A DNA stretch of 64,000 bases, taken from positions 37,951 to 101,950 of the forward strand of contig PLTX01000103.1 of assembly GCA_003164675.1 (NCBI GenBank). Direction: 5' to 3'. The DNA comes from Verrucomicrobiota bacterium (GTDB taxonomy: Bacteria; Verrucomicrobiota; Verrucomicrobiia; Palsa-1439). Both the position numbers and the translations under genes were made by a program. Within the stretch, counting starts at the first letter, position 1; each line of letters opens with the position of its first letter. The notes under the pieces were generated by a model, which saw only the letters and a list, made by a program, of their open reading frames with translations, had not been told where the DNA came from and made no database searches. Of this stretch, positions 657-46,885 are shown piece by piece.

Positions 657-748
657 TGCGTCCTGTTTAAGGCCCCTGTTCGAGAACCGCAAGAACCGGT
701 TTCGGCGCCACGATCCGGGACTTCCACCACGCACCTGCGCGGAGTATC

Positions 749-3103
749 TTGTCCTTCGGTTTGCGCCCAACCACGACAGAAGAAGCGAGCTACTCAATCC
801 GTTCCCGTTGGATCGGAGTTGCCTTCCTGCTGGGGCTGACCCTCTGCATGTTTGGCGACGTCTTGTTCACGAGCCGGCCCGTCGTGTTGTCGGACAGCGG
901 ATACGATCTCGCCTCTCAATTCATCTACTGGCGGACGTTTACGGCCGACCAACTCCGGCACGGGCATCTGCCCCTCTGGAATCCTCACGTCTACTGCGGT
1001 ATGCCGTATCTGGGCTGGGCCCAAACCGCCGTCTTGTATCCAACCAACTGGCTCGATCTCGTCTTGCCGCTCCCACGCTCCATCAATCTCGGGATCGCGC
1101 TCCACGTCTTTCTCGCGGGATTGTTCACCTACCTGTGGGGACTGCGTCGTGGACTGCATCCCGTTGCCGCGGTCGTGGCGGGAGCCTTGTTCATGTTCTC
1201 TGGCTCGTACTTTCTTCATGTCTACGCCGGGCACCTGTCGCTGTTGTACGCCATCGCGTGGACGCCTCTCGTGTTCGCTTCGGTTGATGAGTGGATTCGG
1301 ACACGCACATGGGCCTGGATTCTTGTTGGTATGGCAGCCATCACCATGCAGATATTCGCCGGCGATTTTCAGGCGTGTTTCTATACGGCAGTGGCGGCGG
1401 GGTTGCTGATGCTCTTTGGATTGATCGGTTCCCGGCACCGGACAACGGTTCTCCTGGGATTTTTGGGGATGTATGCCGGGGCCGCTGCGTTGGGTGCCGT
1501 CCAACTTTTGACCAGCCTTCAAGCCGCCTCCGAAAGCATCCGCGCCGGCGGAGTCACCTATAATTTCGCCTCGATGGTTTCTTTCGCTCCCGAGAACCTG
1601 CTTACCCTGTTGGCGCCGGGGTTCTTCGGCAATGGAATCGGCGCGCCGTACTGGGGACGTTGGTATCGGTGGGAAATGTGCTTGTTCGTCGGCGTGAGCG
1701 GACTGGCGTTGGCGGTTTATGGCGCCGCTTGTGGGAAACGCGAACTTCGGCGGGGACTGATTCCACTGCTGGCAATCATGTTGGTGCTGGCGTTGGGTGC
1801 GAATACTCCGCTGTTCAAGCTTCTCTATCGCTGGGTGCCGGGGTTTGATCGGTTTCGGGCCAACGCCAAGTTTGTCATCGAGGCATCACTCTTCATGGTT
1901 ATGTTGGCCGGAGCCGGTCTGGATCGCCTGCTCACCAATCCAAAGGGGAATAAATGGTTGGCTCTGGGCCTATTCGTCGCTGGCATCATTATTCTGTGTG
2001 CTGGGTTGCAACTTCGGTCGGCGACGCTCGCGCCGGAGCCGGCAAACTGGTGGTCCCGAACGATGCAGGCGGTTCACGCCACACAAGAATTGTATTTGCC
2101 GGCCGCGAGCTTTGCGGACCCGACGTTCGTAAGGCAAGCCGGTGAATTCGCCTCACGTTGTCTCTTTGTTGCAGCAGCGGAATTCCTCGTTCTGAGTGGA
2201 CTGGTGCTACTGGCCGGAGCTTCCCGATGGATTGTTTACATGGTGGCGCTTATGGCGATTGCCGAGGTCTTCGTCTTCGGCAGAACATCACTGGCCACGT
2301 TTGATCTGGCGTACACGGAAACGCCAAAACTGAAGGCTTTTCTCGACCAACGCCCGGGAGATTATCGCATCTTCTACCAGCGGATCCCCAACGTCGCCAT
2401 GTGGCTCGGCAAGGAAGACGTCTGGGGGTACGCGCCGCTCACGCTCAAACGCTACACGGAATTCATGGCGTTCACACAAGGGCAACCTCCGGAAGGGGCC
2501 AACCAATACGTTACGTTCTCGCGATTCCATCCGTTGTACGCGATGTTACGCTGGCGGTACGCCTTTCTCGCCAACAAGGATGGCGATCGGGTTGTGACCG
2601 CCGACGCGACCATGCCGCATCTTCAACTGGTGCAGAAATACAACGTGATCTCGGGTCGCGACCAGATTCTGCAAGCGATGGACTCCCCGTCGTTCGACCC
2701 GCGCCAACAAGTCATCCTCGAAACCGAGCCCAACCCTGCCCCTCAAACCTTCGCCGAGAAAGGGACGGTCACACTCATCGATTCATCCGCGAACCAACTT
2801 ACTGTCGAGGCCGACCTCCCGCATCCGGCAATTTTGTTGATCACGGACGCGCACAGCGACGGATGGCGGGTCCGTCCGTTGGACGGCAGTGTGCAGCACA
2901 CCTATGATGTCTTGCCCGCAAATTACGTGTTGCGGGCCATCCCGCTGTCACAAGGCCACCATCACATCCGAATCGAATACGCGCCGATCGGGTTTCGGGC
3001 GGGAACGTGGATATCCATCATGTCTCTGGCTGGCTTCGTCTTTGCGACCGTACTCTATGTGCGAAGAGGCCGGCTTCAGCCACGATCAGTTCTGGTTCCC
3101 TGA
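749..3103 (+). CDS. YfhO-like polytopic membrane protein (putative glycosyltransferase-type)
   Basis: 784-aa ORF with a TTG start at 749, so the start is uncertain. It has many TM helices. The N-terminal SQFIYWR...LPLWNPHVYCGMPY pattern resembles the YfhO family as recalled; not searched. Confidence 0.65.
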   Translation: MSFGLRPTTTEEASYSIRSRWIGVAFLLGLTLCMFGDVLFTSRPVVLSDSGYDLASQFIYWRTFTADQLRHGHLPLWNPHVYCGMPYLGWAQTAVLYPTNWLDLVLPLPRSINLGIALHVFLAGLFTYLWGLRRGLHPVAAVVAGALFMFSGSYFLHVYAGHLSLLYAIAWTPLVFASVDEWIRTRTWAWILVGMAAITMQIFAGDFQACFYTAVAAGLLMLFGLIGSRHRTTVLLGFLGMYAGAAALGAVQLLTSLQAASESIRAGGVTYNFASMVSFAPENLLTLLAPGFFGNGIGAPYWGRWYRWEMCLFVGVSGLALAVYGAACGKRELRRGLIPLLAIMLVLALGANTPLFKLLYRWVPGFDRFRANAKFVIEASLFMVMLAGAGLDRLLTNPKGNKWLALGLFVAGIIILCAGLQLRSATLAPEPANWWSRTMQAVHATQELYLPAASFADPTFVRQAGEFASRCLFVAAAEFLVLSGLVLLAGASRWIVYMVALMAIAEVFVFGRTSLATFDLAYTETPKLKAFLDQRPGDYRIFYQRIPNVAMWLGKEDVWGYAPLTLKRYTEFMAFTQGQPPEGANQYVTFSRFHPLYAMLRWRYAFLANKDGDRVVTADATMPHLQLVQKYNVISGRDQILQAMDSPSFDPRQQVILETEPNPAPQTFAEKGTVTLIDSSANQLTVEADLPHPAILLITDAHSDGWRVRPLDGSVQHTYDVLPANYVLRAIPLSQGHHHIRIEYAPIGFRAGTWISIMSLAGFVFATVLYVRRGRLQPRSVLVP

Positions 3104-4741
3104 CCGCTGCCGCTGCTCGCGCAATGCCATGGCCAGGTTGTGCTGGGCCTGGGCGTCATCCGGGTTGAGACGCGTGGCTTCGAAAAAGCGTTGTATGGCC
3201 TCTTCCAGTTTGCCCTGATGATAGAGAACGACACCAATCCCGTCCACTGCCTCCGCATATCGTGGATCAATCTCGAGGGCCGCGGCGAAATGCGTCAGGG
3301 CTTCCGTCTCCCGCCCCGCCTTCATCAACGCCAGGCCCCAGTCATATTGCACCTGCGCGAAATCCGGCTTCAACCGCAATGTCTCGGTAAACGCCGCGCC
3401 CGCCGCGTCGAGTTGTCCCGCAGTTGCCAACGCCAATCCCAAACCGTATCGCGCGTCGGGATTCGTCGGCGCTTTTTGTGCCGTGTCTCGCCAAATGGAA
3501 ACCTCGGTTCCATAATCCATGTTGCGTCGCATGGTGGTTGCTCCCAATGCGAGTCCAGCCAGCACCACCGTTCCCAAGCCGAGCCACTTCTTCGCCCCAC
3601 CCGTCCCGGGAAGCCTGTGGATTGTCGCGTACCCTGCGCACACGATCACCGCGACCACCGCCATGAGCGGGAGATACATTCGGTGCTCAAATACGGGATG
3701 CAGCAGCGGAATCACAGACGACGTCGGCGCCAACGTGATAAAAAACCACGCGCCAAGAAATCCCACGGCGCGCTTTCGGGTCAGCAACCACGCCGTGACG
3801 ATCAGCAAAATGGCCGTCACCCCGCACTGGATCCACAACAGTAACTCTGCTGGTGGTTGTGGACGGCCGTACAGCAGGCACAAGCGGTCAGGCCACAGGC
3901 TCAGGCGCAAATAATGGAGAATGACTCCGGGCTGCAACTTCGCATAATCAAGCCACGTGATCGCGTGGCTGCCGTACATCACGCCCGCGCTCCCCATCCA
4001 TTCTTGTTTGCCGGCGGAGAGGAAGACGGCGGCCAGCAACCAACTGGCCATCAGCCCGACATAAAGCCGCCAGCGCCTGCGCCATGGTTCCGACCATGCC
4101 GGCGCGAGAAATGTCCAATCGTACGCCAGCACCAACACGGGAACCACCAGCGCCGCCGGTTTCGACCCCACAGCCAGCGCGCAGGCAAGTATGGCCGGAA
4201 AGTTCCATGTGGCTGCCCGTTCCGTTGTCGCCCCGCGGATGACGCAGTACAGGGTAAACACAGCAAACAATCCCGCCATACTTTCCGAGCGTTGGATCAC
4301 GTAGGTCACGCTCTCCGTATCGAGCGGATGCAACGCCCAGAGCAGAGCCACGGCGAATCCCACCCCGTCCGCCGCATCACCAAAAATCGGAGCGAGTTTT
4401 TCCATCCGCAACGTCCGTCGCACCACCCCGAACAAAACAAGCGCGGTCAATGCATGAATCAGATTGTTGACGAGGTGGTATCCAACCACATTCAGACCGC
4501 CCATGGCATAGTTGAGCGCCAGGCTCCATTGCACGACCGGGCGTGACGTGTTCAGGAACGGCATCCATGGCGGCCAGAGAGCGTGGATGTTTTGGTTCTT
4601 CAGAACCCACGGAACGTCATCGAGGATGAAAGCGGCGTGCCAGTTGTTGCCGTAGACAACCAGCGCCGTCACAAACAACAACGCCGCCAGCCAACACGTC
4701 CCAAACCTGGATTCTTCCGATTTCATCGCAAACTGACGCAT
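3086..4741 (-). CDS. membrane protein with C-terminal TPR repeats (TMTC/PMT-like architecture)
   Basis: 551-aa ORF with a polytopic N-terminal domain followed by TPR-like repeats (YGLGLALATAGQLDAAGAAFTETLRLKPDFAQVQYDWGLALMKAGRETEAL...). It converges on the previous gene with an 18-bp overlap. Confidence 0.65.
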   Translation of the reverse strand: MRQFAMKSEESRFGTCWLAALLFVTALVVYGNNWHAAFILDDVPWVLKNQNIHALWPPWMPFLNTSRPVVQWSLALNYAMGGLNVVGYHLVNNLIHALTALVLFGVVRRTLRMEKLAPIFGDAADGVGFAVALLWALHPLDTESVTYVIQRSESMAGLFAVFTLYCVIRGATTERAATWNFPAILACALAVGSKPAALVVPVLVLAYDWTFLAPAWSEPWRRRWRLYVGLMASWLLAAVFLSAGKQEWMGSAGVMYGSHAITWLDYAKLQPGVILHYLRLSLWPDRLCLLYGRPQPPAELLLWIQCGVTAILLIVTAWLLTRKRAVGFLGAWFFITLAPTSSVIPLLHPVFEHRMYLPLMAVVAVIVCAGYATIHRLPGTGGAKKWLGLGTVVLAGLALGATTMRRNMDYGTEVSIWRDTAQKAPTNPDARYGLGLALATAGQLDAAGAAFTETLRLKPDFAQVQYDWGLALMKAGRETEALTHFAAALEIDPRYAEAVDGIGVVLYHQGKLEEAIQRFFEATRLNPDDAQAQHNLAMALREQRQRSGNQN

Positions 4742-4874
4742 CTTGAATCCTCAGCGAATCGTAACGGCGCGCGGCCCGCGTTGCGAAGAGAAAATTCGGT
4801 TGCAACCCTCTCCGCAAGGCTTAGAATCACGACTCCCGCCCAACATGGCCGGGTTTTTGGCGAAAGGTATTCCG

Positions 4875-5981
4875 ATGAAATCTTACAACGTGGCAGTTAT
4901 CGGCGGCGACGGCACGGGGCCCGAGGTCGTTCGGGAAGCGATCAAGGTGCTCGACGTCGCGTCGAAGAAATTCGACATCAAGCTCAACTACACAAACTAC
5001 GATTTTGGTGGCGACCGCTACCTGCGCACCAAGGAAGTGCTGCCGGAAAGCGCGGTCAGCGAATTGCGCAAGTTCCCCGTCGTCCTCCTCGGCGCCATCG
5101 GCCATCCCGATGTGAAGCCCGGCATCCTGGAGAAAGGCATCTTGTTGCGGTTGCGCTTCGAGATGGAACAGTACATCAACCTTCGCCCCGTGAAACTGTA
5201 CGATGAGCGCTTCTGTCCATTGAAGGGCAAGGGACCGAACGACATTGATTTTGTCGTGATTCGCGAAAACAACGAAGGCCTCTACACGGGCAGCGGCGGG
5301 TTCGTGTTCAAGGGCACGCCGAACGAGATCGCCGTGCAGGAAAGCATCAACACCCGTCGCGGTGTGGAACGCTGCCTGCGCTATGCGTTCGAGCTCGCGC
5401 GTAAACGCCACGGCGGCAAGCCGTGGAAGGGCCTGAAACCCGAGGACGTCAAAGACGGCAAGAAGGCTCAGCTCACCTTGTGCGGCAAGACCAACGTGCT
5501 CACCTACGCATTCGACCTCTGGGAACGCGCGTTCCATGAAACCGGTCAAAAAGAATATCCCGACATCAAACGCGATTACGCCCACGTCGACGCCACGACC
5601 ATGTGGTTCGTGAAGAATCCCGAGTGGTTCGATGTGATCGTGACCGACAACCTGTTCGGCGACATCATCACTGACCTCGGCGCGATGATCCAGGGCGGCA
5701 TGGGCATCGCCGCGGGCGGCAACATCAATCCCGAGGGCACCAGCATGTTCGAACCGATCGGCGGCAGCGCGCCGAAATATACCGGCAAGAACGTCATCAA
5801 CCCGCTCGCCGCAATCTGCGCCGGCGGTCTCATGCTCGATTTCCTAGGAGAGACCAAGGCGGCGCAGGCCATCGAAAACGCCGTCATCAAAACCGTCCGC
5901 GAAAAGCTCAAGTCCCTTGCCGCCGGCAAGATGGGCTACGGCACGAACGAAGTCGGCGATCTGGTCGCGGCAGCCGTATAG
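4875..5981 (+). CDS. isocitrate/isopropylmalate dehydrogenase family oxidoreductase (3-isopropylmalate or tartrate dehydrogenase-like)
   Basis: Start moved to the ATG at 4875 ([19 protein letters not shown]). Family motifs present: [12 protein letters not shown] and [12 protein letters not shown]. Confidence 0.85.
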
Positions 5982-10719: not shown

Positions 10720-11493
10720 TTAATGCACCACAAGGTCACCCGGCTGGGGAGGGTGCTTGAGATAATCCGGCAGAATCTGGGCGATACAATTGTTCGCGGC
10801 GACGGAGACAACCTGTACTTTACCGACGAATTTGGAGTCACGGTACACCAGAAATTCCGCATTGGGCTGGACGCGCTGCGAATGGCCAACATCCATCACA
10901 ATAAAACCCCATTTGCCCTGCACGACGGAAACATGGCCGCGTAAACCAACGGGCGTGGTGCCCAGTTCCTCGACCTTCGCCTTCAACTGCTCGTTCGCCG
11001 TATGCATCACCATGAGTTGCTGGCCAAGAACCTTGTTCTCCTCTCCCATGGATACGATCCTGTCGTGAAGCTGCGCGATGTTATTGATATTCGTAATACC
11101 CACGTCTCTCAACGCGTCCTGGATATTCTTTAGTGTCGCCTGGACTGTCTCCAAATCCGCCTTGGTCTGTGCCAACTGATTCGTCGCGCCCGTCAATTGC
11201 GTCTGCAGTGAGCTGGCCTCCTGCGTCTTCTGGTCGAGCGCCGCCTTGGTCGTCACGAGGGTCGCCGTGGTTTGTACCAAATTGCTCTTCGTCGTCGTCA
11301 AGTCCGCCTGGGTCTGCTTCAATGTCCCCTTGGTCTTGGTGAGCTCGGCCTTCGTCTGGGTCAGTGAATTATCCAACTCCGCGATCTTCGCGAGGTGGGC
11401 CTTCTTCATGCCATTCAGCCTAAACGCCAGATACAACGATCCGAGGCTGACGATGACAACAACAATCGGGGCAAATTTACCAAGTCTATTCAT
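10720..11493 (-). CDS. membrane-anchored coiled-coil protein
   Basis: 257-aa ORF with an N-terminal TM helix, a long Q/T/K-rich heptad-like region and a compact C-terminal domain. Confidence 0.6.
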   Translation of the reverse strand: MNRLGKFAPIVVVIVSLGSLYLAFRLNGMKKAHLAKIAELDNSLTQTKAELTKTKGTLKQTQADLTTTKSNLVQTTATLVTTKAALDQKTQEASSLQTQLTGATNQLAQTKADLETVQATLKNIQDALRDVGITNINNIAQLHDRIVSMGEENKVLGQQLMVMHTANEQLKAKVEELGTTPVGLRGHVSVVQGKWGFIVMDVGHSQRVQPNAEFLVYRDSKFVGKVQVVSVAANNCIAQILPDYLKHPPQPGDLVVH

Positions 11494-11589
11494 AGCGCGG
11501 CTTCCTCCGTCCAGAGATTCTCCGGAAAGTCTGCCCGCATCCTAGCCAAATATCCGTACCCGTGTCAACCATGCCTTCGGCGACCCCGT

Positions 11590-12075
11590 TTACCCCTGCC
11601 AATCCCCCCTCCCGTGCCCGATATTCCGCCGCCGACTGTGTGACCGCACCTCCCCCGCCAACTCCCGCAACGCCGCGTCCACTTCCTCCTCAAAAATCTC
11701 CGCCGACATGCTCTGCGCCCCCAACGACTCCACCGTCCGCCGCTCCATGTTGTCCGACGTCGCCACCATGATGCTCGTTCTGTGTTCCGACTGTCCGACC
11801 AGCCGCTCGATCAAATCATCCGCCGTCTTGCCTTTGTCCGAAAACAGCACCTCGACCCCATGCGTCGGCTCCTGCCCTTCCGGCTTGCGTTTCGCCGCGT
11901 AACCATCGAACACCACCGTCACCCGGCGGTGACTGTGGTCCGCGTACTGCCGCAGCAACGCCACCAACGCCTCGCGTTTCTGCTGCAGCGACAACTGCCG
12001 CGCCCTGCGAGTCGTAAACCGCGGCCACGCATGCAGCAGGCTGTACCCGTCCACCAGTATCCAGGGATTGGTCAC
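11590..12075 (-). CDS. NYN-domain / YacP-like predicted RNase
   Basis: ILVDGYSLLH...VTVVFDG...VLFSDKGKTADDLIERL...VATSD pattern, typical of YacP/NYN proteins. Confidence 0.7.
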   Translation of the reverse strand: MTNPWILVDGYSLLHAWPRFTTRRARQLSLQQKREALVALLRQYADHSHRRVTVVFDGYAAKRKPEGQEPTHGVEVLFSDKGKTADDLIERLVGQSEHRTSIMVATSDNMERRTVESLGAQSMSAEIFEEEVDAALRELAGEVRSHSRRRNIGHGRGDWQG

Positions 12076-12316
12076 CGATCAGCCACAAATTGACGCTCTG
12101 GATTCATTCCTCCTACGTGATACTCGAACTCTCGCCGGAAAAGAAGCTCTCCCTGCCAACGCGTTTGGCGCTTCCGCGCCCCGCCCAAATTCTTCCAACC
12201 GTAACGTTTCGGTAATCCACTCCGTGGCAGGCTGCGGCGCGGTCGGCCAATGGCCGGCTCACGGCCCGCGAAAACGGGCCCGTGAAACGCACACATGCCA
12301 ACAGGAGGTAGTCAGT

Positions 12317-12835
12317 ATGCAGATTAAGACAATCGTTTCAGGAATTGCCGCTCTCGCCCTCGTCGCGGGGCTCGCCATCAACGTGTCCGCCGAGGAGAAA
12401 GGGGAGAACGAAAAGCCTCTGGCCCTCGCGGATGTTCCAGCCGCCGTACAATCCGCGATCAAACAGTTCGCGGGAAGCAACCCCATCGAAAGAATCTCCA
12501 AAGAATCTGAAGACAACAAAACCATTTTCGAAGCCGCGATCACCATCAACGGCTCGAAACAGGCCATCGAGGTGTTCGCCGACGGTACCGTAAACCAGAC
12601 CGAAAAGCAGGTCTCGCTGAAAGACGTTCCCGACCCCGTCCAGGCCGCCATCAAGTCGCTGGCTGGCTCGGGTTCGGTTGACGAGATTGTCGAAGAAACC
12701 TCCGACGGCAAGAAGAACTACGAAGTCGAAGTCACCGTGAACGGGAAGAAGAGGGAAGTCCACATCGATGCCAACGGGAAGATTGAGAAAGACGAAGGAA
12801 AGTGCGAGCACAAAGGACACGGCGACAAAGATTAA
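12317..12835 (+). CDS. secreted PepSY-like tandem-domain protein
   Basis: ATG at 12317 behind an AGGAGG RBS, followed by a signal peptide. Two internal repeats (VPAAVQSAIKQFAGS...EAAITINGSKQAIEVFADGTV and VPDPVQAAIKSLAGS...EVEVTVNGKKREVHIDANGKI). Confidence 0.6.
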   Translation: MQIKTIVSGIAALALVAGLAINVSAEEKGENEKPLALADVPAAVQSAIKQFAGSNPIERISKESEDNKTIFEAAITINGSKQAIEVFADGTVNQTEKQVSLKDVPDPVQAAIKSLAGSGSVDEIVEETSDGKKNYEVEVTVNGKKREVHIDANGKIEKDEGKCEHKGHGDKD

Positions 12836-12863
12836 GCCGCCCAACGATCCGCAATTGAGGACG

Positions 12864-12905
12864 GGTTCTGGGGCGTCCGTTTCCCCTCAGAACCTTGTCT
12901 TTTTT
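12864..12905 (+). terminator. rho-independent terminator
   Basis: GGGTTCTGGGG-N10-CCCTCAGAACC hairpin followed by TTGTCTTTTTT. Confidence 0.6.
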
Positions 12906-12919
12906 GGTAGAATGTCCCC

Positions 12920-41537: not shown

Positions 41538-41546
41538 TGGCGACCC

Positions 41547-41711
41547 ATGGATAAGATCATCGTCACCAGCGCGTAGGGCGCGGGCTATCCCGAGGGCGGC
41601 GGCGTGCAATGGCTCAATCTCCATTACCTCGCCGGCCTCCGCGCGCTCGGCTTCGAAGTCTTCTGGCTCGATGTCCTCCCCTCCCGGGAAACACGCGCCT
41701 CCGTGCTCTAA
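41547..41711 (+). pseudogene. N-terminal remnant of a Rossmann-type (glycosyltransferase-like) gene
   Basis: MDKIIVTSA*GAGYPEGGGVQWLNLHYLAGLRALGFEVFWLDVL... with an in-frame TAG at 41574-41576. The reading frame ends at 41711, with no continuation anywhere downstream. Confidence 0.35.
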
Positions 41712-41808
41712 GTGGAGGGCCACGCGGAGCTTGCACTGAGCAATGTCGAAGTGTCGTGGCCGCTTCCGCGTCGTTTTAGGTCGTTTCCCCTCTCCCGGCA
41801 TGCCTCAC

Positions 41809-41940
41809 ACCCCCCAAACGAAGCCATTTTTAGCAAAACGAAGCCAAGTGACAAAATGGCACAGTTGGCCTCCCAACCATCTATCAGCCAATGAGATATA
41901 AAACAACAAGCACCTCAAAAAATTGGCTTCGTTTGGCAGA
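41809..41940 (+). repeat. about 135-bp noncoding element, copy B
   Basis: CCCCAAACGAAGCCATTTTTAGCAAAACGAAGCCAAGTGACA...TTGGCTTCGTTTGGC. Same half-site architecture and internal blocks (TGGC-CA-TTGGC...CAACCA...CAGCCA...ACAAGC) as 9225-9358 on the opposite strand. Confidence 0.55.
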
Positions 41941-42334
41941 ATTACATATATGGCGGGGTCTCCCCCTTTCGCCATCGGCGCTTGCCAGCCTCAGGCGTGA
42001 CTCCACGCTTCACACTGAACGCTCCACGCCTGCCGTCTCGCGCTGGCTCTCCACCGAGGCACTTGGGTACTCATGCACTTTGGCACCAATCTCCCCCATG
42101 CCCCCCTTCTCCCCTATATCAAAGAGCCATACAACCACCCCGACCATACACAATCGCATGTCGTTTGTCTAGACATTTTTCAATGGCGGATTGCCCATTG
42201 CGTCGGACGGCTCTGGCGGCGCCCACGACGGCGACACAATCGCTGTGCCGCCCGGGGGCAACCACGGAACCGTCACGAGTCAAGACGGACTCAGGAAGGC
42301 CAATAGCGCACCGACAAGACAGGTACTTCACTTC

Positions 42335-42377
42335 TGACGTACGTTCCTGTTGACATACGTCAAATTGTGCGTATTAT
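42335..42377 (+). promoter_or_regulatory. sigma70-type promoter overlapped by an inverted repeat (putative operator)
   Basis: TTGACA (42350-42355), 16-nt spacer, TATTAT (42372-42377). TGACGTA (42335-42341) and TACGTCA (42356-42362) bracket the -35 box. The ATG at 42385 is only 8 nt past the -10. Confidence 0.5.
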
Positions 42378-42384
42378 TCCCCGC

Positions 42385-43554
42385 ATGAAGGCAAATCCTG
42401 GTGGGCAACTGGCCCCGGACGAAGTTTTTGGGCGCGATGAACTGATTGATCGGTTGTGGCGTATCCTCGACCGTCAAAGCATCGTTCTTGGCGCTGAGCG
42501 ACGAATGGGGAAAACGCAGGTCATCAAGAAAATGGAGGCGGAGGCTCCAGCGAGCAAACTCCCAATCTACCACGACTTGGAGGGGGTGCGATCGCCAGTC
42601 GAATTTGTTGAGCTGATTTTCCACGACGTCGAAAAATACCTCAGCCGTTGGAATCGCACCGCCGAACGCGCCCGATTGCTGCTCACGCACCTCGCGGGAG
42701 GAGAAGTGGCTGGCGTGAAGTTCCCAGACACAGTGGCGCCACACTGGAAAACCCTCCTCTCACAGACGATCGAGGATCTCGTTTCACAACAGAGTGAACT
42801 GCAAGTCGTGTTCTTGTGGGACGAATTACCACTGATGTTACACAACATTCGCGTCGCGCACGGGGAAGGCGTCGCCATGGAATTGCTCGACACGTTGCGA
42901 GCGCTTCGCCAGTCACACCCCAGCCTCCGAATGGTCTTCACCGGTTCCATCGGTCTGCATCACGTGCTGACGGCGCTGCGCAAGGCCGGGTACATCAATC
43001 CCTCGACCAACGACATGTTTGCGGTTGAAGTGCTCCCGTTAGAGCACTCCGACGCCGAAGATCTGGCGAAGAACTTGTTGAACGGTGAAGGAATTCAGTG
43101 CAACGAAATCGCCGCTGTGGCAAAAGCCATCTCAACCGAGTCGAATTGCGTCCCCTTTTTCATTCACCACCTTGTAGAGGAACTTGCCGCCGGTCACCTC
43201 CGGGGCACGCCCGAGCTTATTATCAAGATCACAGATGAGCGGTTGCGTGACCCACAGGACGTGTGGCATCTGCGCTACTTTGTGGATCGGGTTGAACGGT
43301 ATTACCCCGCTGGCGACGCGAAATTAGCACGCGCAATTCTTGACGTGCTAGCCGGGGAACCCGCGGGGCTCCCGTTCGACAATCTATTCAGTCGGGTCAA
43401 AACCCATGTCACGACGGAAGACGCCGACGCCGTTCGTGACATGCTCACGCTTCTCCAGAGGGATCATTATCTTGTTCAAAAGGCAAACGGCCGGTTCGTG
43501 TTCCGGCTCCCCTTGGTGCGGAAGGCATGGAGAATCCACCGAGCCCTCATATGA
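42385..43554 (+). CDS. STAND/ORC-like P-loop NTPase with C-terminal winged-helix (Arch_ATPase-like)
   Basis: FGRDELIDRL, Walker A GAERRMGKTQ, Walker B VVFLWDELP, MVFTGS, helical and wHTH-like tail. The track start GTG at 42367 lies inside the -10 box, so the ATG at 42385 is preferred. Confidence 0.75.
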   Translation: MKANPGGQLAPDEVFGRDELIDRLWRILDRQSIVLGAERRMGKTQVIKKMEAEAPASKLPIYHDLEGVRSPVEFVELIFHDVEKYLSRWNRTAERARLLLTHLAGGEVAGVKFPDTVAPHWKTLLSQTIEDLVSQQSELQVVFLWDELPLMLHNIRVAHGEGVAMELLDTLRALRQSHPSLRMVFTGSIGLHHVLTALRKAGYINPSTNDMFAVEVLPLEHSDAEDLAKNLLNGEGIQCNEIAAVAKAISTESNCVPFFIHHLVEELAAGHLRGTPELIIKITDERLRDPQDVWHLRYFVDRVERYYPAGDAKLARAILDVLAGEPAGLPFDNLFSRVKTHVTTEDADAVRDMLTLLQRDHYLVQKANGRFVFRLPLVRKAWRIHRALI

Positions 43555-45935
43555 AATCGCCATTGATCGCGCGCTTTACGCCGAGCCTTATGGCTCCGGC
43601 TGACCTCGAGGCAATCTTTGTCCAGCGGGAGAATCTCGCGCAGCGTCTCGTCGAACAAATCCGCGAGAGCGTGCTGACGCCGGCGAAACACCATAATCTC
43701 CTTATCGGGCCTCGCGGCATTGGCAAGTCACATTTGACCACCTTGGTGGTGAATCGCGTTGTTGCACAAGCGGACATTCGCGAACGCATGATCGTCGCCT
43801 GGCTGCGCGAGGAGGAGTGGGGTGTGATGTCCTTCCTTGATTTGCTGCTGCGCATCTTGCGCGCTGTCAGCGAAGAGTCTGGTGTGTCCATTCCGCAGGA
43901 GCGTCTTGACGCCATTCATGATGCTCCCCCCTCGCAGGCTGAGAAACTCGCCGTGCGATTGGCGCGGGACGTGATCGCCGACAAGACCTTGTTCATCATT
44001 ATTGAAAATCTTGACGAGATCTTTAACGGCCTCGCGCTCCGTGAGCAACGGGCTTTTCGCGCCTTCTTACAGGAGAAAGCCAGTGTCACCACACTCGCCA
44101 CGTCACCGGGCCTCTTCGTCGGCGCATCGGTTCAAACCTCGCCGTTTTACGGCTTTTTCAACGTGCATCACCTGTCGGAACTCAGCTTCGAGGACGCGGT
44201 TCTGCTGCTGGAAAAAATTGCCACCAGTCGGGGTCAGCTCGACCTTGCACAATTTCTCCGCACGCCCGCGGGCCGCGCCCGCGTACGCGCCATCGACCAC
44301 CTTGCCCACGGCAACCCACGGGTGTATATCATTCTGTCAGAGTTTCTCACCGTGCAGTCGCTCGACGACCTTGTCGACCCCGTGTTGCGGATGCTCGACG
44401 ACCTGACCCCGTACTACCAATCGCGCATTTTGTCGCTCTCGATGCAACAGCGCAAAATCATCGAATTCCTCGCCGACCATCGCAGCCCGGCTGTGGTAAA
44501 GGAAATTGCGCGACGCTGTTTCATGACGCAGCAAACCGCTTCTGGCCAACTCAAGAAGCTATCCGAATGGGGTTACGTCGTTTCAGAGAAGCTCGGACGC
44601 GAAAGCTACTATGAACTCCGTGAACCGCTGATGCGGTTCTGCATGGACTTGAAAAAGCAGCGAAAGGAGCCCTTGCGTCCACTGGTGGAAATCCTGCGCA
44701 TCTGGTGGACCCCGGACCAGCTTGAAGAGCAGTTGACGAAGTTGCCGATCGACACCTCGATCACTAGGAAACATCTTGCGGAAGCACTGGCGCGATGTCG
44801 AAAGGAAACTACTGATCCGCGAATCGAGGCCTGCCAGAAGGCATTTAACCTGCACCTTGATCAAGGGGAGTGGGATGCGGCACTTAAGGCAGCCGAGGAC
44901 ATGGTGGCCATTACCGGAGATGAGGCAAATCTTACGGGTGTCGGCATCTGTCTGTTCTACCTCGACCGATACCAAGAGGCTGCGGTTGCGTTGGACCGCG
45001 CATTGCCAAAGACACCGGACATTCAGCGAATCAGGATTCTGCGGGCGGCCTGCGCATCGGAGCTAAAGGACTACGGACAGGTGGTGCAGCTAACTGAGGA
45101 TTTTGCGAACGCAAGAGAGATGAAGTCGGCGGCATTGATACTGCGCGGCAAGGCGTTGCTAGAGCTTGGGCGCCCCGTCCAAGCCTTGGGCGCCCTCTCC
45201 AGATTTTTGAAGCTAAAGCCGGAGCATACGGCGGGTTGGCGACTAGTAACAAGAGCATTAATGGAGTTGGACAAGCTACCAGAAATGGAGGGAGCGGCAC
45301 GGAAGCTCGTAGAGCTGAGACCAGACGATGCGGCAGCACTATTGTATTTGGGCGTTTCTCTATTTCGACAATCTAAGGACGAGGAAGCACTTCCGATCTT
45401 GCTCCGTGCACACGAGTTGGAAGATCCCACGGGTATATCGCTATCTCTTCGATCAGTCATTTTCGCAAGGCTTGGACGGTGGTCAGATGCTCTGGCTGAA
45501 CTCGGGCGTGCACTGGAAGCTAAATCTTCCGTACATCTAGATCGCTTATGGACTCTTACTCAGATTCTCACGCCGGTACTCGTGGGACTAGATCATGCCG
45601 GTTTTCAGAGCTTCCTTGCAGATGTAAATCAGTTGCTTCAGAAGCATGGGGCTCCCCAGTTTACAATGGGGCAATTTCTCCTGCAGACCATCGCGTCCGC
45701 TAGCCAGGGTAAGACAGAGATTCCGGCCTCTAAAACCGATGCGTTCGACGCCGCTCTTAACAATCTTGCGAAAGAGAAAGGCGACGATGTGGTCATCCAC
45801 TTGCTGTACGCCATACGGGAATTCACTTCGACTGGAGATAGGGCAGCCCTCTTGCAGTTGCCCTTGGAGGAGCGGCAACTCGTGGAACCTTGGCTGCGGT
45901 CAAGCGAGCAAAAGGACCGATCCGCAAAGAAGTGA
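43551..45935 (+). CDS. STAND-like P-loop NTPase with wHTH and C-terminal TPR array
   Basis: Walker A GPRGIGKSH, Walker B LFIIIENLDE, TLATSPG. wHTH QQRKIIEFLADHRSPAVVKEIARRCFMTQQTASGQLKKLSEWGYVV. About 400 aa of TPR-like repeats. ATGA overlap with the upstream gene. Confidence 0.78.
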   Translation: MKSPLIARFTPSLMAPADLEAIFVQRENLAQRLVEQIRESVLTPAKHHNLLIGPRGIGKSHLTTLVVNRVVAQADIRERMIVAWLREEEWGVMSFLDLLLRILRAVSEESGVSIPQERLDAIHDAPPSQAEKLAVRLARDVIADKTLFIIIENLDEIFNGLALREQRAFRAFLQEKASVTTLATSPGLFVGASVQTSPFYGFFNVHHLSELSFEDAVLLLEKIATSRGQLDLAQFLRTPAGRARVRAIDHLAHGNPRVYIILSEFLTVQSLDDLVDPVLRMLDDLTPYYQSRILSLSMQQRKIIEFLADHRSPAVVKEIARRCFMTQQTASGQLKKLSEWGYVVSEKLGRESYYELREPLMRFCMDLKKQRKEPLRPLVEILRIWWTPDQLEEQLTKLPIDTSITRKHLAEALARCRKETTDPRIEACQKAFNLHLDQGEWDAALKAAEDMVAITGDEANLTGVGICLFYLDRYQEAAVALDRALPKTPDIQRIRILRAACASELKDYGQVVQLTEDFANAREMKSAALILRGKALLELGRPVQALGALSRFLKLKPEHTAGWRLVTRALMELDKLPEMEGAARKLVELRPDDAAALLYLGVSLFRQSKDEEALPILLRAHELEDPTGISLSLRSVIFARLGRWSDALAELGRALEAKSSVHLDRLWTLTQILTPVLVGLDHAGFQSFLADVNQLLQKHGAPQFTMGQFLLQTIASASQGKTEIPASKTDAFDAALNNLAKEKGDDVVIHLLYAIREFTSTGDRAALLQLPLEERQLVEPWLRSSEQKDRSAKK

Positions 45936-46081
45936 TCAGCTCGAATTGTCGTTAGCATTGTCGCATTGAACCGGGGCTTCCATCGTTGCGCCCAACTAGA
46001 GCTGAAGCAACCGCACCATCCGCCTGACTTCCCGCATCATGCCCGCCACGTGCCAGCCCAAATGCCGATCCCGCCGTAGGG

Positions 46082-46885
46082 TCATCTGCCCGCATCCCCC
46101 TCCGGCTTGCTCCCGAACTGGAACAAACTGTTATCAAACGTGAATTGGTAGGCAACGTAGCATTGGAAGATCGTCGGACCGTCAATCGACCGGCCGGCGG
46201 ACACCAGCAAATGATGCTGGTCGCTGAAATCGATGACCGTGCCGATATTGAACGCGGTGCCGACGTTGGGAAAGTCCACTTGCAACTGCGTTTGGTGATA
46301 CACCTCCGCGCCGATGAGTACATTGGTCAACACCTGTTTTTGCAGCACGCCGCCCACAAATTCCCAGTTCCTGTGGCCCGCAAAGGAATTGATGCCGTAG
46401 CCGCCGCCGCCATACGCCGTCCAGTCACCCCAACTCTTTTGCAGCCACACCGGCAGGAACCCCTGTAGATGCCCCGTGCCGAGATTCTCCCGGCTGCTGC
46501 CCGAGGGAACTTCCAGCAGCGGGAACACACCCACTTGCGGCACCCAATTCGTTTCCTCGATGAAGCGGAATTTCACGCCCAGTTCCGTGTCGCCATAACC
46601 GTAATGGGCGCTGCCGACGGACGGCGCGTCGTACGCCAGTGGCGCAATCAGATGAAGCTGCATGTTGGAAATGACGCCGTAATTCAGTTCGAAATGTGGC
46701 CCGGTGCCGGACCAGTCGCCCGGCACCTTGGCGTCCTGGGAGGCAACATAAAATTCCCAATGTTGATAATCCACCGGTTCGGGGTCGTCGGTGAAGAATG
46801 GCGGCCCGCCATAAGCGCTTCCGGCGAGGGTCATGCCGAGCGCTGTCAATTCAATAGCAGATGCTAGGCGTCGTATCGTTCCCAT
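46082..46885 (-). CDS. outer-membrane beta-barrel protein (MetA-pathway/transporter-like family)
   Basis: Signal peptide, then GPPFFTDDPEPVDYQHWEFY and alternating beta-strand pattern typical of this barrel family, as recalled. Confidence 0.65.
   Translation of the reverse strand: MGTIRRLASAIELTALGMTLAGSAYGGPPFFTDDPEPVDYQHWEFYVASQDAKVPGDWSGTGPHFELNYGVISNMQLHLIAPLAYDAPSVGSAHYGYGDTELGVKFRFIEETNWVPQVGVFPLLEVPSGSSRENLGTGHLQGFLPVWLQKSWGDWTAYGGGGYGINSFAGHRNWEFVGGVLQKQVLTNVLIGAEVYHQTQLQVDFPNVGTAFNIGTVIDFSDQHHLLVSAGRSIDGPTIFQCYVAYQFTFDNSLFQFGSKPEGDAGR

Follow-up and report, generated by a model that had tools for sequence, protein, structure and literature searches.

A mobile two-gene cassette of predicted STAND-type ATPases with a hypervariable TPR sensor and its own operator array: a tentative candidate for effector-less non-self surveillance in bacteria

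Molecular switches of the STAND (signal transduction ATPases with numerous domains) and NOD-like receptor (NLR) type, coupled to sensors built of repeats, are well known and, to our knowledge, the characterised bacterial NLR-like receptors rely on a fused enzyme to kill the cell or to arrest it. Here we describe a cassette found in a 64,000-nucleotide stretch of DNA (the window) from a Verrucomicrobiota bacterium (contig PLTX01000103.1, positions 37,951 to 101,950 of the forward strand), in which such a switch appears in a new form: a second ATPase is obligatory, an effector is missing, and a phased operator travels with the genes. The cassette is composed of gene 1 (42385-43554, forward strand), an open reading frame (ORF) of 389 amino acids (aa) counted from its ATG, and gene 2 (43551-45935, forward strand), an ORF of 794 aa. 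It is widespread, and its evolutionary pattern is that of a receptor locus, the sensor being hypervariable, internally repeated and recombining. Tentatively, and with a confidence that stays a little below even, we read the pair as an autoregulated sensor/helper STAND pair for the surveillance of invaders or non-self, whose output would be non-enzymatic and probably directed at DNA.

No name or description of the pair was found in the profile libraries and literature searched, its homologues being annotated as “AAA family ATPase”, “ATP-binding protein” or “tetratricopeptide repeat protein”. In the literature searched, neither the operator sequence nor any such two-gene system found a match, the closest precedent being the nSTAND2 operon. 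This is a mobile bacterial two-gene operon whose products are both STAND NTPases predicted to form a hetero-multimer, one partner having eroded NTP-binding motifs and a variable effector, either GT4 or HEPN (PMC8195603). The cassette is likewise a mobile operon of two STAND-type NTPases; however, both of its partners keep the Walker A motif, neither carries an effector, one has a sensor of tetratricopeptide repeats (TPR), and the NTPase family is Arch_ATPase/ORC-like. The Avs/bNACHT proteins (Avs1-21) resemble gene 2 in the predicted succession of a STAND NTPase, a helical domain, a winged helix and a large TPR sensor. Avs3 is the best structural match of the whole gene 2 model, and the fast-evolving sensor and the patchy taxon distribution are also Avs-like. 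In contrast to Avs, the cassette has no N- or C-terminal effector domain and needs a second, sensor-less AAA+ gene, its winged helix resembles those of true DNA-binding MarR/ArsR proteins and comes with a dedicated operator array, and it matches no PADLOC model and is not tied to defence islands.

The MalT/LAL/AfsR regulators are comparable in that the cassette, too, would join an NTPase switch to a helical-repeat sensor, has repeated phased sites in its promoter and would have a non-enzymatic output. It differs from them in lacking a LuxR-type or SARP domain, its only winged helices lying inside the nucleotide-binding oligomerisation domain (NOD) modules, and in having no linked target operon, a hypervariable sensor and a required second ATPase; moreover, its sites overlap the -35 and -10 hexamers, suggesting repression rather than activation. 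With the Arch_ATPase proteins (PF01637; structures 2fna and 2qen) and with Orc1/Cdc6, the models of both genes share an AAA+ core, a lid and a winged helix. Orc1/Cdc6 proteins are replication initiators, and we know of no function for the archaeal Arch_ATPase proteins SSO1545 and PAB2304. Neither cassette gene, however, matches PF01637 by sequence (Pfam, E values up to 1), and the cassette genes are bacterial and paired, one of them carrying TPRs.

Plant paired NLRs consist of a genetically linked sensor and sensor-less partner, and the cassette also pairs a sensor with a sensor-less partner, although its genes are co-transcribed and not head-to-head. The cyanobacterial homologues of the cassette recall the fungal NLRs (HET-E/D, NWD; PMC4986451) in their near-identical repeats, copy-number polymorphism and focused variation. 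Unlike both the fungal and the plant receptors, the cassette is bacterial, belongs to a different NTPase clade and has no death-effector domain. A further link leads to the vWA-MoxR-VMAP ternary systems (PMC7159879), since one relative, P0328, fuses the gene 1 module to a vWA domain and since enrichment in multicellular bacteria is common to both. The window, however, has no vWA, MoxR or VMAP gene, and the single fusion amounts to a link and not to membership.

The unity of the pair is apparent from its conservation. For each gene a large protein collection contains more than 1,000 homologues, many of which match as pairs on common contigs, and an exhaustive profile search with gene 1 yielded 2,974 clusters at 50% identity, 748 of them with an E value of 1e-30 or better. 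With one genome scanned for each of 185,579 species, 228 loci came to light, mostly in filamentous cyanobacteria, the other host groups being Acidobacteriota, Planctomycetota, Binatia, Verrucomicrobiota, Bacteroidota, Desulfobacterota, Gemmatimonadota and Poribacteria; the pair was found in at least 8 phyla, with a patchy distribution. Eighty loci were fetched, 79 of which could be tested (one stops right after gene 1), and a gene 2 homologue lies directly 3' of gene 1 in 78 of the 79. An earlier note on this DNA had proposed to check for co-conservation as neighbours, which is borne out by this count, and had held that homologues standing alone or beside a fixed metabolic operon would speak against its proposal; the homologues do not stand alone, and the neighbours hold no conserved operon. 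The two genes are separated by -13 to +11 bp in most lineages and by 114-679 bp in the Microcoleus clade, and pairwise identity of gene 1 correlates with that of the gene 2 N-terminal part (r = 0.81). A distant pair, at locus L127, is 27-28% identical to the window pair and has the same architecture and the same C-terminal motif, which indicates that the two-gene arrangement is old.

A third conserved gene was not found, as all-against-all clustering of 1,204 neighbour ORFs revealed clade-restricted synteny only: a membrane protein, RsmB and PBP1A beside the pair in the Microcoleus clade, and glutaminase and Mo-nitro_C in the Floridaenema group. An effector-encoding third gene was also considered among the large co-directional upstream ORFs and rejected, these being unrelated housekeeping enzymes. 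Two exceptional loci were seen in metagenome-assembled genomes (MAGs). At L085 (Synechococcales; 11100-12916) an insertion sequence (IS) of the IS200/IS605 type, with tnpA on the minus and tnpB on the plus strand, truncates the 3' end of gene 1, and gene 2 is missing, so that this locus is a natural knock-out of the cassette. At L047 (Planctomycetota; 11170-12453) the gene 2 homologue, 32% identical, has 427 aa with NTPase and winged helix and no TPR, and it reads as a sensor-less variant.

Direct reading of the window sequence confirmed the two ORFs given by the earlier note and their ATGA start/stop overlap (43551-43554, forward strand), which is consistent with translational coupling. Other possible starts exist upstream (GTG at 42367 for gene 1, ATG at 43527 for gene 2), and the starts were set at MKANPGG and MKxxFLSRFTPSLM, respectively, because of the N-termini of the homologues. 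All features of the two proteins lie on the forward strand. Gene 1 carries the lead-in EVFGRDELIDRL, the Walker A motif AERRMGKT (42493-42516) and the Walker B motif VVFLWDE within QVVFLWDELP (42802-42831), all of them read from the sequence and all as previously listed, and the winged-helix-like tail that had been suspected appears in the structure model as a C-terminal winged helix at about residues 309-386 (43309-43542). Its Pfam match to AAA_22 reaches 26.8 bits, just below the cutoff of 27. The AlphaFold2 model, with a predicted local distance difference test (pLDDT) score of 89.9, is best matched in Foldseek by 2fna (SSO1545) and 2qen (PAB2304), with TM scores of 0.63-0.73 and E values of about 1e-10, followed by Orc1/Cdc6, ORC4, RuvB, RFC and the NB-ARC modules of NRC and CED-4. 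Because of these matches, gene 1 is assigned by its model as a sensor-less AAA+ ATPase of Arch_ATPase/ORC-Cdc6-like type, with core, helical lid and C-terminal winged helix. Its homologues are 50-96% identical over the full length, with GKT and WDE invariant; the Walker B motif has the classical hhhDE form, kept in 66 of 67 pairs, and Walker A is kept equally often (66/67).

Gene 2 is longer and more composite. The NTPase motifs that had been reported are present, with Walker A GPRGIGKS at 43707-43730 and the Walker-B-like LFIIIENLD within TLFIIIENLDE at 43986-44018, both by sequence reading; the former claim that fewer than 50 aa precede the P-loop fails for this protein, in which 52 residues stand ahead of the P-loop glycine. 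The GxxxxGK[ST] form of Walker A occurs in 66 of 67 homologues, and the hhhhENLD form in 53 of 67 with E152 invariant, which makes for an atypical Walker B with Glu-Asn in place of Asp-Asp/Glu. In Pfam the protein scores 31.3 bits against AAA_16 (cutoff 32.6) and matches neither NACHT nor NB-ARC at E values up to 1, and the TIGR02928 (orc1/cdc6) model scores only 0.17, for gene 2 and not for gene 1. The homologue P0193 has a precomputed match to PF20703, which we take to be the nSTAND1 model. The AlphaFold2 model (pLDDT 83.6) places a helical domain between the NTPase and a winged helix at residues 296-357 (44436-44621), and its top Foldseek matches are Avs3 (8dgc) and the archaeal STAND-TPR protein 6mfv, Apaf-1 being matched as well; the NTPase part matches PAB2304 (2qen, TMt 0.60), ORC4 and Orc1/Cdc6.

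The winged helix of gene 2, MarR/ArsR-like by Pfam, NCBIfam and the model, matches MarR_2 at residues 296-346 with 33.1 bits, above the Pfam cutoff, and the NCBIfam ArsR/SmtB model with an E value of 1.3e-10 and 40.9 bits, below that model's cutoff of 55. Residues S297, Q299, Q300, R301, T329, Q333, G349 and R350 of this domain are invariant, and the recognition-helix and wing residues are invariant among homologues. It is followed by the TPR sensor at about residues 404-660 (44760-45530), where Pfam TPR families match from about 430 to 660, so that both the winged helix and the TPR repeats of the earlier description are upheld. The last part, residues 661-794 (45531-45932), is a conserved helical C-terminal domain with invariant L767, E773, E774 and R775; these approximately 135 aa, all-helical and of lower model confidence, have no match in Pfam and were considered as a hidden effector. 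Pfam gave no LuxR/GerE or Trans_reg_C match, and BTAD reached just 0.013, within the TPR region. From its model, gene 2 is predicted to be a STAND-type NTPase in which a NOD module (NTPase, helical domain and winged helix) precedes the TPR sensor.

The two ATPases share an Arch_ATPase/ORC-like fold in their NTPase models. BLASTP detected no similarity between the two NTPase modules, and a profile-profile comparison with hhalign gave a weak collinear match over 311 columns (E value 6.5e-4, probability 27%). A shared architecture of the NTPases is shown, and recent paralogy is unproven, because the BLASTP result is null and the hhalign match weak; the case for clear paralogues was rejected. Of the earlier description of gene 1 as a sensor-less paralog and of gene 2 as repeating its NTPase core, the common fold stands and the paralogy does not. 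Nuclease, TIR, SIR2, protease and pore families are absent from both genes in Pfam, NCBIfam and PADLOC, as the earlier note had stated for this copy. The proposed profile and PADLOC searches matched no named system: with the 2023 PADLOC library gene 1 gave nothing and gene 2 only local winged-helix matches (Csa3/CARF-type), and a named defence system was rejected on the lack of any system-level match in the PADLOC, Pfam and NCBIfam scans.

The hypervariable sensor, which the earlier note overlooked, is where the receptor-like signature resides. Between the window and its closest relative, locus L001, the ATPase parts are 96-98% identical and the first 420 aa of gene 2 97%, whereas residues 421-794 are only 38-63% identical. 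Synonymous divergence (dS) is 1.1-3.4, that is saturated, in residues 421-794 versus 0.02-0.6 in gene 1 and gene 2 residues 1-420. In the latter regions the ratio of nonsynonymous to synonymous divergence (dN/dS) is 0.02-0.1 except in one 60-codon window (0.29, at a dS of 0.025), and for gene 1 it is about 0.08 overall, with 60-codon windows ranging from 0 to 0.29. By these ratios, purifying selection acts on both ATPase modules. Since residues 421-794 are so diverged and their dS so high, the sensor half appears to have come from a much more distant allele by recombination. The same contrast is found elsewhere: in three Floridaenema species gene 1 is 98% identical, the N-terminal part of gene 2 93% and the TPR region 33-37%, with gene 2 lengths of 790, 892 and 1049 aa, and the pairs of the Microcoleus clade likewise set a conserved ATPase against divergent TPRs. 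Among the loci, gene 2 ranges from 690 to 1262 aa.

In cyanobacterial relatives the repeats are nearly identical to each other. The 14.4 tandem TPR units of 102 bp at locus L038 (Microcoleus) share 89% identity, and the 9.5 repeat copies of L008 share 76%; the TPRs of the window gene 2 are diverged, with no tandem repeat at the DNA level. Variation among the L038 repeats is confined to few positions, which in standard TPR numbering we take to be positions 2, 5, 6, 9 and 12 of helix A, the ligand-binding concave face. Fungal NLRs with highly internally conserved repeats show this pattern (PMC4986451). A hypervariable, internally repeated TPR sensor of this kind offers what we consider the best argument that the pair may be a conflict or non-self receptor. 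As a separate observation, in three loci of the Microcoleus clade (L030, 11408-14982; L058; L059) gene 2 is split inside the 102-bp TPR array, and a separate downstream ORF holds the remaining repeats and the conserved C-terminal domain, which points to a true frameshift or else to repeats that collapsed during assembly.

A second feature that had gone unremarked, and the principal new result, is an operator array over the promoter that spans phyla. When the 110 nt upstream of gene 1 are aligned across many phyla, a repeated palindrome, TGACGTACGTCA, emerges, the cyanobacterial form of which is often TAACGTACGTTA or TGACGTACAATA. Counting as a match any site with up to 3 mismatches to TGACGTACGTCA, the 200 nt upstream of gene 1 (about 17 kb in total) were scanned against 1.24 Mb of flanking DNA. 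There are 101 matches upstream, or about 5.8 per kb, versus 309 in the flanks, or 0.25 per kb. At least one site is present in 62 of 81 loci and 2 or more in 33, leaving out locus L024 as a slicing artefact, and all of the 47 neighbouring site pairs are spaced by 16 (37 pairs), 32 (9) or 48 nt (1). The promoters of the cassettes carry arrays of 2-4 palindromes with 16-nt phasing. Neither some 1.2 Mb of flanks nor the rest of the 64-kb window showed a further pair with 16- or 32-nt spacing. A scan of viral contigs for the double site by exact pattern returned none, which says nothing either way, since the pattern recovers only 1 of about 80 true loci.

In the window, operator site 1, TGACGTACGTTC, lies at 42335-42346 with 2 mismatches to TGACGTACGTCA, and operator site 2, TGACATACGTCA, at 42351-42362 with 1 mismatch, overlapping the -35 hexamer; they form the sole 16-nt-spaced pair in the window. 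The sigma-70-like promoter at 42350-42377 (forward strand), TTGACA-16 nt-TATTAT, matches at 11 of 12 positions, and only 7 nt separate its -10 hexamer, which falls in a third, degenerate repeat, from the ATG. Elsewhere the -10 forms part of ACGTATAAT, a degenerate repeat, and a GGAGG Shine-Dalgarno sequence comes after it. Most other lineages have this GGAGG, and none is seen before gene 1 of the window (42372-42387). Because the -10 ends so close to the ATG and a Shine-Dalgarno sequence is lacking, the gene 1 mRNA is probably leaderless in the window organism, and the same would apply to L001.

As the motif travels with the cassette across phyla, the cassette probably encodes its own sequence-specific DNA binder, the candidates being the MarR/ArsR-like winged helix of gene 2, probably a true DNA binder, and the C-terminal winged helix of gene 1. 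Autorepression is suggested because the sites overlap the -35 and -10. In the distant pair of L127 a different palindrome, AGCAACATTTNTGTTGC, occurs twice (10990-11055) and abuts the start codon, the two copies, AGCAACATTTTTGTTGCT and AGCAACATTTCTGTTGTT, being about 33 nt apart, which hints at co-evolving operator specificity in the superfamily at large.

The cassette also appears to move. Gene 1 of L001 is 96% identical to that of the window, and the flanking genes are entirely different. Nucleotide homology between the two is limited to 41771-41942, 42135-45004 and 45281-46080, and since it ends there, with unrelated flanks, the cassette is delimited at about 4.3 kb (41771-46080). The GC content of 41538-46081 is 56.5% versus 61-62% in the flanks, in agreement with the lower value noted earlier, and GC at third codon positions is 63-66% in the cassette versus 81-84% in the ABC transporter, RluA and MFS genes (PyrD, 69%). 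Two peat-metagenome contigs, L088 and L164, are 83-90% identical in nucleotide sequence to the right flank of the window. L164, with 83-89% identity on that flank, extends about 4 kb past the convergent 267-aa gene that follows the cassette, and there homology stops at the stop codon of that gene with no cassette present; L088 ends about 0.5 kb past the same gene. In the metagenome scan with the 267-aa gene, most matches were paralogues located elsewhere, the right flank being shared by L088 and L164 alone. Both contigs are without the left flank and give no clean empty site, and absence of the cassette is demonstrated in L164. Flanking repeats were limited to a weak inverted repeat of 20 nt, 80% complementary and probably due to chance, Rfam gave no RNA element, and tRNA-type integration sites were considered and rejected. 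On composition and homology, the cassette reads as a compact, compositionally foreign, horizontally transferable two-gene unit, which upholds the earlier description of a compact island, given the foreign composition and the near-identical L001 copy in different flanks.

A few relatives connect gene 1 to known conflict systems. A C-terminal TIR_2 domain is fused to gene 1 in 2 clusters among more than 1,150 (E value 1.7e-23). In one of them (P0056 and locus L026, 4318-7938) the order is gene 1-TIR, a 217-aa protein and gene 2, and in the other (P0241) gene 2 directly follows gene 1-TIR; the 217-aa protein belongs to no Pfam family and has hydrophobic N-terminal segments that, by eye, resemble transmembrane helices. 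The loci with TIR-fused variants of gene 1 include L005 and L166 (534-4741). In P0328 (locus L169) a SAV_2336_NTERM vWA domain (E value 2e-133) is fused ahead of a complete gene 1-type module, which presumably occupies the variable C-terminal position of the vWA component of ternary systems. The L169 operon (692-5857) has VMAP-C and MoxR (AAA_5) genes, then the 932-aa vWA-gene 1 protein and no gene 2 homologue, and the gene 3' of the fusion looks AIPR-like (abortive infection). Rare as they are, the TIR and vWA fusions put gene 1 on the output side.

As regards the operator-binding protein, the complex between the two products, the ligand and the output, we infer the following scheme. Gene 2 would be the receptor, a STAND-type nucleotide switch; the ligand of its hypervariable TPR array would be one that changes fast, in all likelihood a protein from an invader or from non-self cells. 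Gene 1 would be the sensor-less AAA+ helper or output subunit, made in fixed proportion through translational coupling. At least one of the winged helices would bind the ACGT-core palindromes over the pair's own -35 and -10, and autorepression would keep expression low. Binding of ligand to the TPR array could then trigger nucleotide exchange and hetero-oligomerisation with gene 1, altering DNA binding; derepression would follow, and the AAA+/winged-helix oligomer would load on DNA, with growth arrest or a block of invader replication as the outcome. In rare variants the output would come from the TIR domain fused to gene 1. In its most specific form, that of an NLR-type pair whose output is direct DNA binding, a ligand-triggered winged-helix oligomer would leave or occupy the phased ACGT-core sites and thereby reprogramme transcription or stop replication, giving an effector-less form of immunity or allorecognition spread horizontally among multicellular bacteria. 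This joint proposal, to which the NLR transcription factors CIITA and NLRC5 and the sensor/helper NLR pairs of plants are conceptually close, must be called unlikely as a whole.

Several observations weigh against surveillance as the role of the pair. Nearly all of the 123 immediate neighbours are housekeeping genes, so enrichment next to defence genes is not seen, the defence-island context was rejected, and the island of that kind expected earlier did not materialise. PADLOC matches among these neighbours comprise 8 Uma2-like proteins, 6 to the mad2 methyltransferase model (probably RsmB genes), 2 TnpB and single matches to PD-T4-6, Csx1, MkoA and mad6. No relative was found in GenBank phages or in 2.9 million viral contigs, the plasmid collection gave just one match, of 24% identity, and in the Microcoleus clade the pair is stably syntenic, like an ordinary chromosomal gene. 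More than 99% of family members, the window copy included, have no recognisable effector domain, and the fusions are rare (2 TIR clusters and 1 vWA protein among more than 1,000 members). The high dS of the sensor means recombination and is not proof of positive selection, and an operator array is equally expected of a plain transcription factor.

It is from this last side that the pair may be seen as ligand-gated STAND transcription factors of the MalT/AfsR/GutR type, without any conflict role, regulating themselves and unlinked box-bearing genes; the TPR array would sense a cellular or environmental ligand, and the winged helices would bind arrays of ACGT-core boxes. We hold this, the main rival reading, to be rather doubtful; what keeps it alive is the operator array, in view of which the winged helix of gene 2 is probably a true binder of DNA. 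MalT is the paradigm of a repeat-sensor NTPase that binds cooperatively to repeated boxes, and an NTPase with a repeat sensor and repeated boxes fits it, as do the conserved array of fixed phasing over the promoter and a winged helix that exceeds the MarR_2 cutoff, matches ArsR/SmtB and keeps its recognition-helix and wing residues invariant. The search for an enzymatic effector was negative, the neighbours are housekeeping genes and, in the Microcoleus clade, the pair occupies a syntenic place on the chromosome, all of which suit a regulator. However, no lineage has a conserved adjacent target operon, no second array with 16- or 32-nt spacing exists in the flanks or the window, and a cassette that crosses phyla with its own operator has no conserved host regulon to count on. 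Metabolic sensors do not behave like this one, which shares 33-37% identity where the ATPase modules share 93-98% and which varies in repeat number, and the second ATPase and the TIR fusions are left unexplained. Should the pair prove to be a regulator, it would likewise be out of the ordinary, as a STAND transcription factor whose sensor diversifies. If the surveillance reading is right, its mode of output has been overlooked by current defence-finding pipelines, which would miss the cassette because they key on effectors and defence islands. Under either reading the conserved operator provides a direct and cheap experimental handle.

The ORC-like fold of gene 1 opens another route, in which the pair is a selfish addiction or DNA-maintenance module: gene 1 would load on DNA and be harmful or essential depending on context, gene 2 would restrain it and the operator would balance the two, in the manner of a toxin-antitoxin or restriction-controller circuit, TPR variation then reflecting incompatibility between alleles (allorecognition or exclusion) and not the sensing of invaders. 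A compact, autoregulated cassette that moves horizontally without partner genes, translational coupling, the winged helix on the ORC/Cdc6-like gene 1, the enrichment in filamentous multicellular bacteria, where kin discrimination matters, and the L085 cassette inactivated by an IS element are all in line with it. Such a module is improbable nonetheless, given that no integrase, transposase, replication or partition genes travel along, that it is absent from the phage and viral-contig collections with a single distant plasmid match, that both proteins have been under long-term strong purifying selection at syntenic positions and that no toxin-like domain is present. That the two ORFs are no functional unit at all, being unrelated ATPase genes adjacent by chance or decaying pseudogenes, finds a foothold in the Pfam ATPase matches that fall just below curated cutoffs. 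Order and spacing conserved in 78 of 79 testable loci across phyla, intact frames, low dN/dS, confident structure models and a conserved cis element refute it, and its probability is close to nil.

Among the features around the cassette, the noncoding DNA 5' of gene 1 measures 847 bp (41538-42384) and not the 670 bp given earlier. The truncated gene remnant proposed upstream of the cassette has no Pfam match and is putative. Within the noncoding DNA, the upstream block shared with L001 (41771-41942) is 77% identical in nucleotide sequence to L001 9157-9328. It contains an 18-nt inverted repeat (41814-41831 and 41919-41936, 94% complementary and 87 nt apart) and three copies of the 11-mer AAACGAAGCCA, against 0.05 expected, and has no match in Rfam. 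Possible readings of this block are a small RNA, a second regulatory site or the cassette's left end.

On the other side, 146 bp separate gene 2 from the convergent ORF, whose stop is at 46082, a distance that agrees with the earlier one. This convergent gene of 267 aa (46082-46885, minus strand) has no Pfam match, so that its outer-membrane label is putative; it has 383 relatives from peat and bog metagenomes in many different contexts. A homologue also stands directly upstream of the distant pair of L127, either by coincidence or as a weak link. The 3' intergenic tail (45936-46081) contains the right end of the shared cassette, at 46080, where homology to L001 ends. A 101-bp piece at 45984-46084 recurs as a 92% identical copy in L088 (8972-9072), about 0.9 kb upstream of the homologue of the 267-aa gene, and the L001 cassette ends with a version of about 69% identity; the piece could be a short repeat or resemble a terminator.

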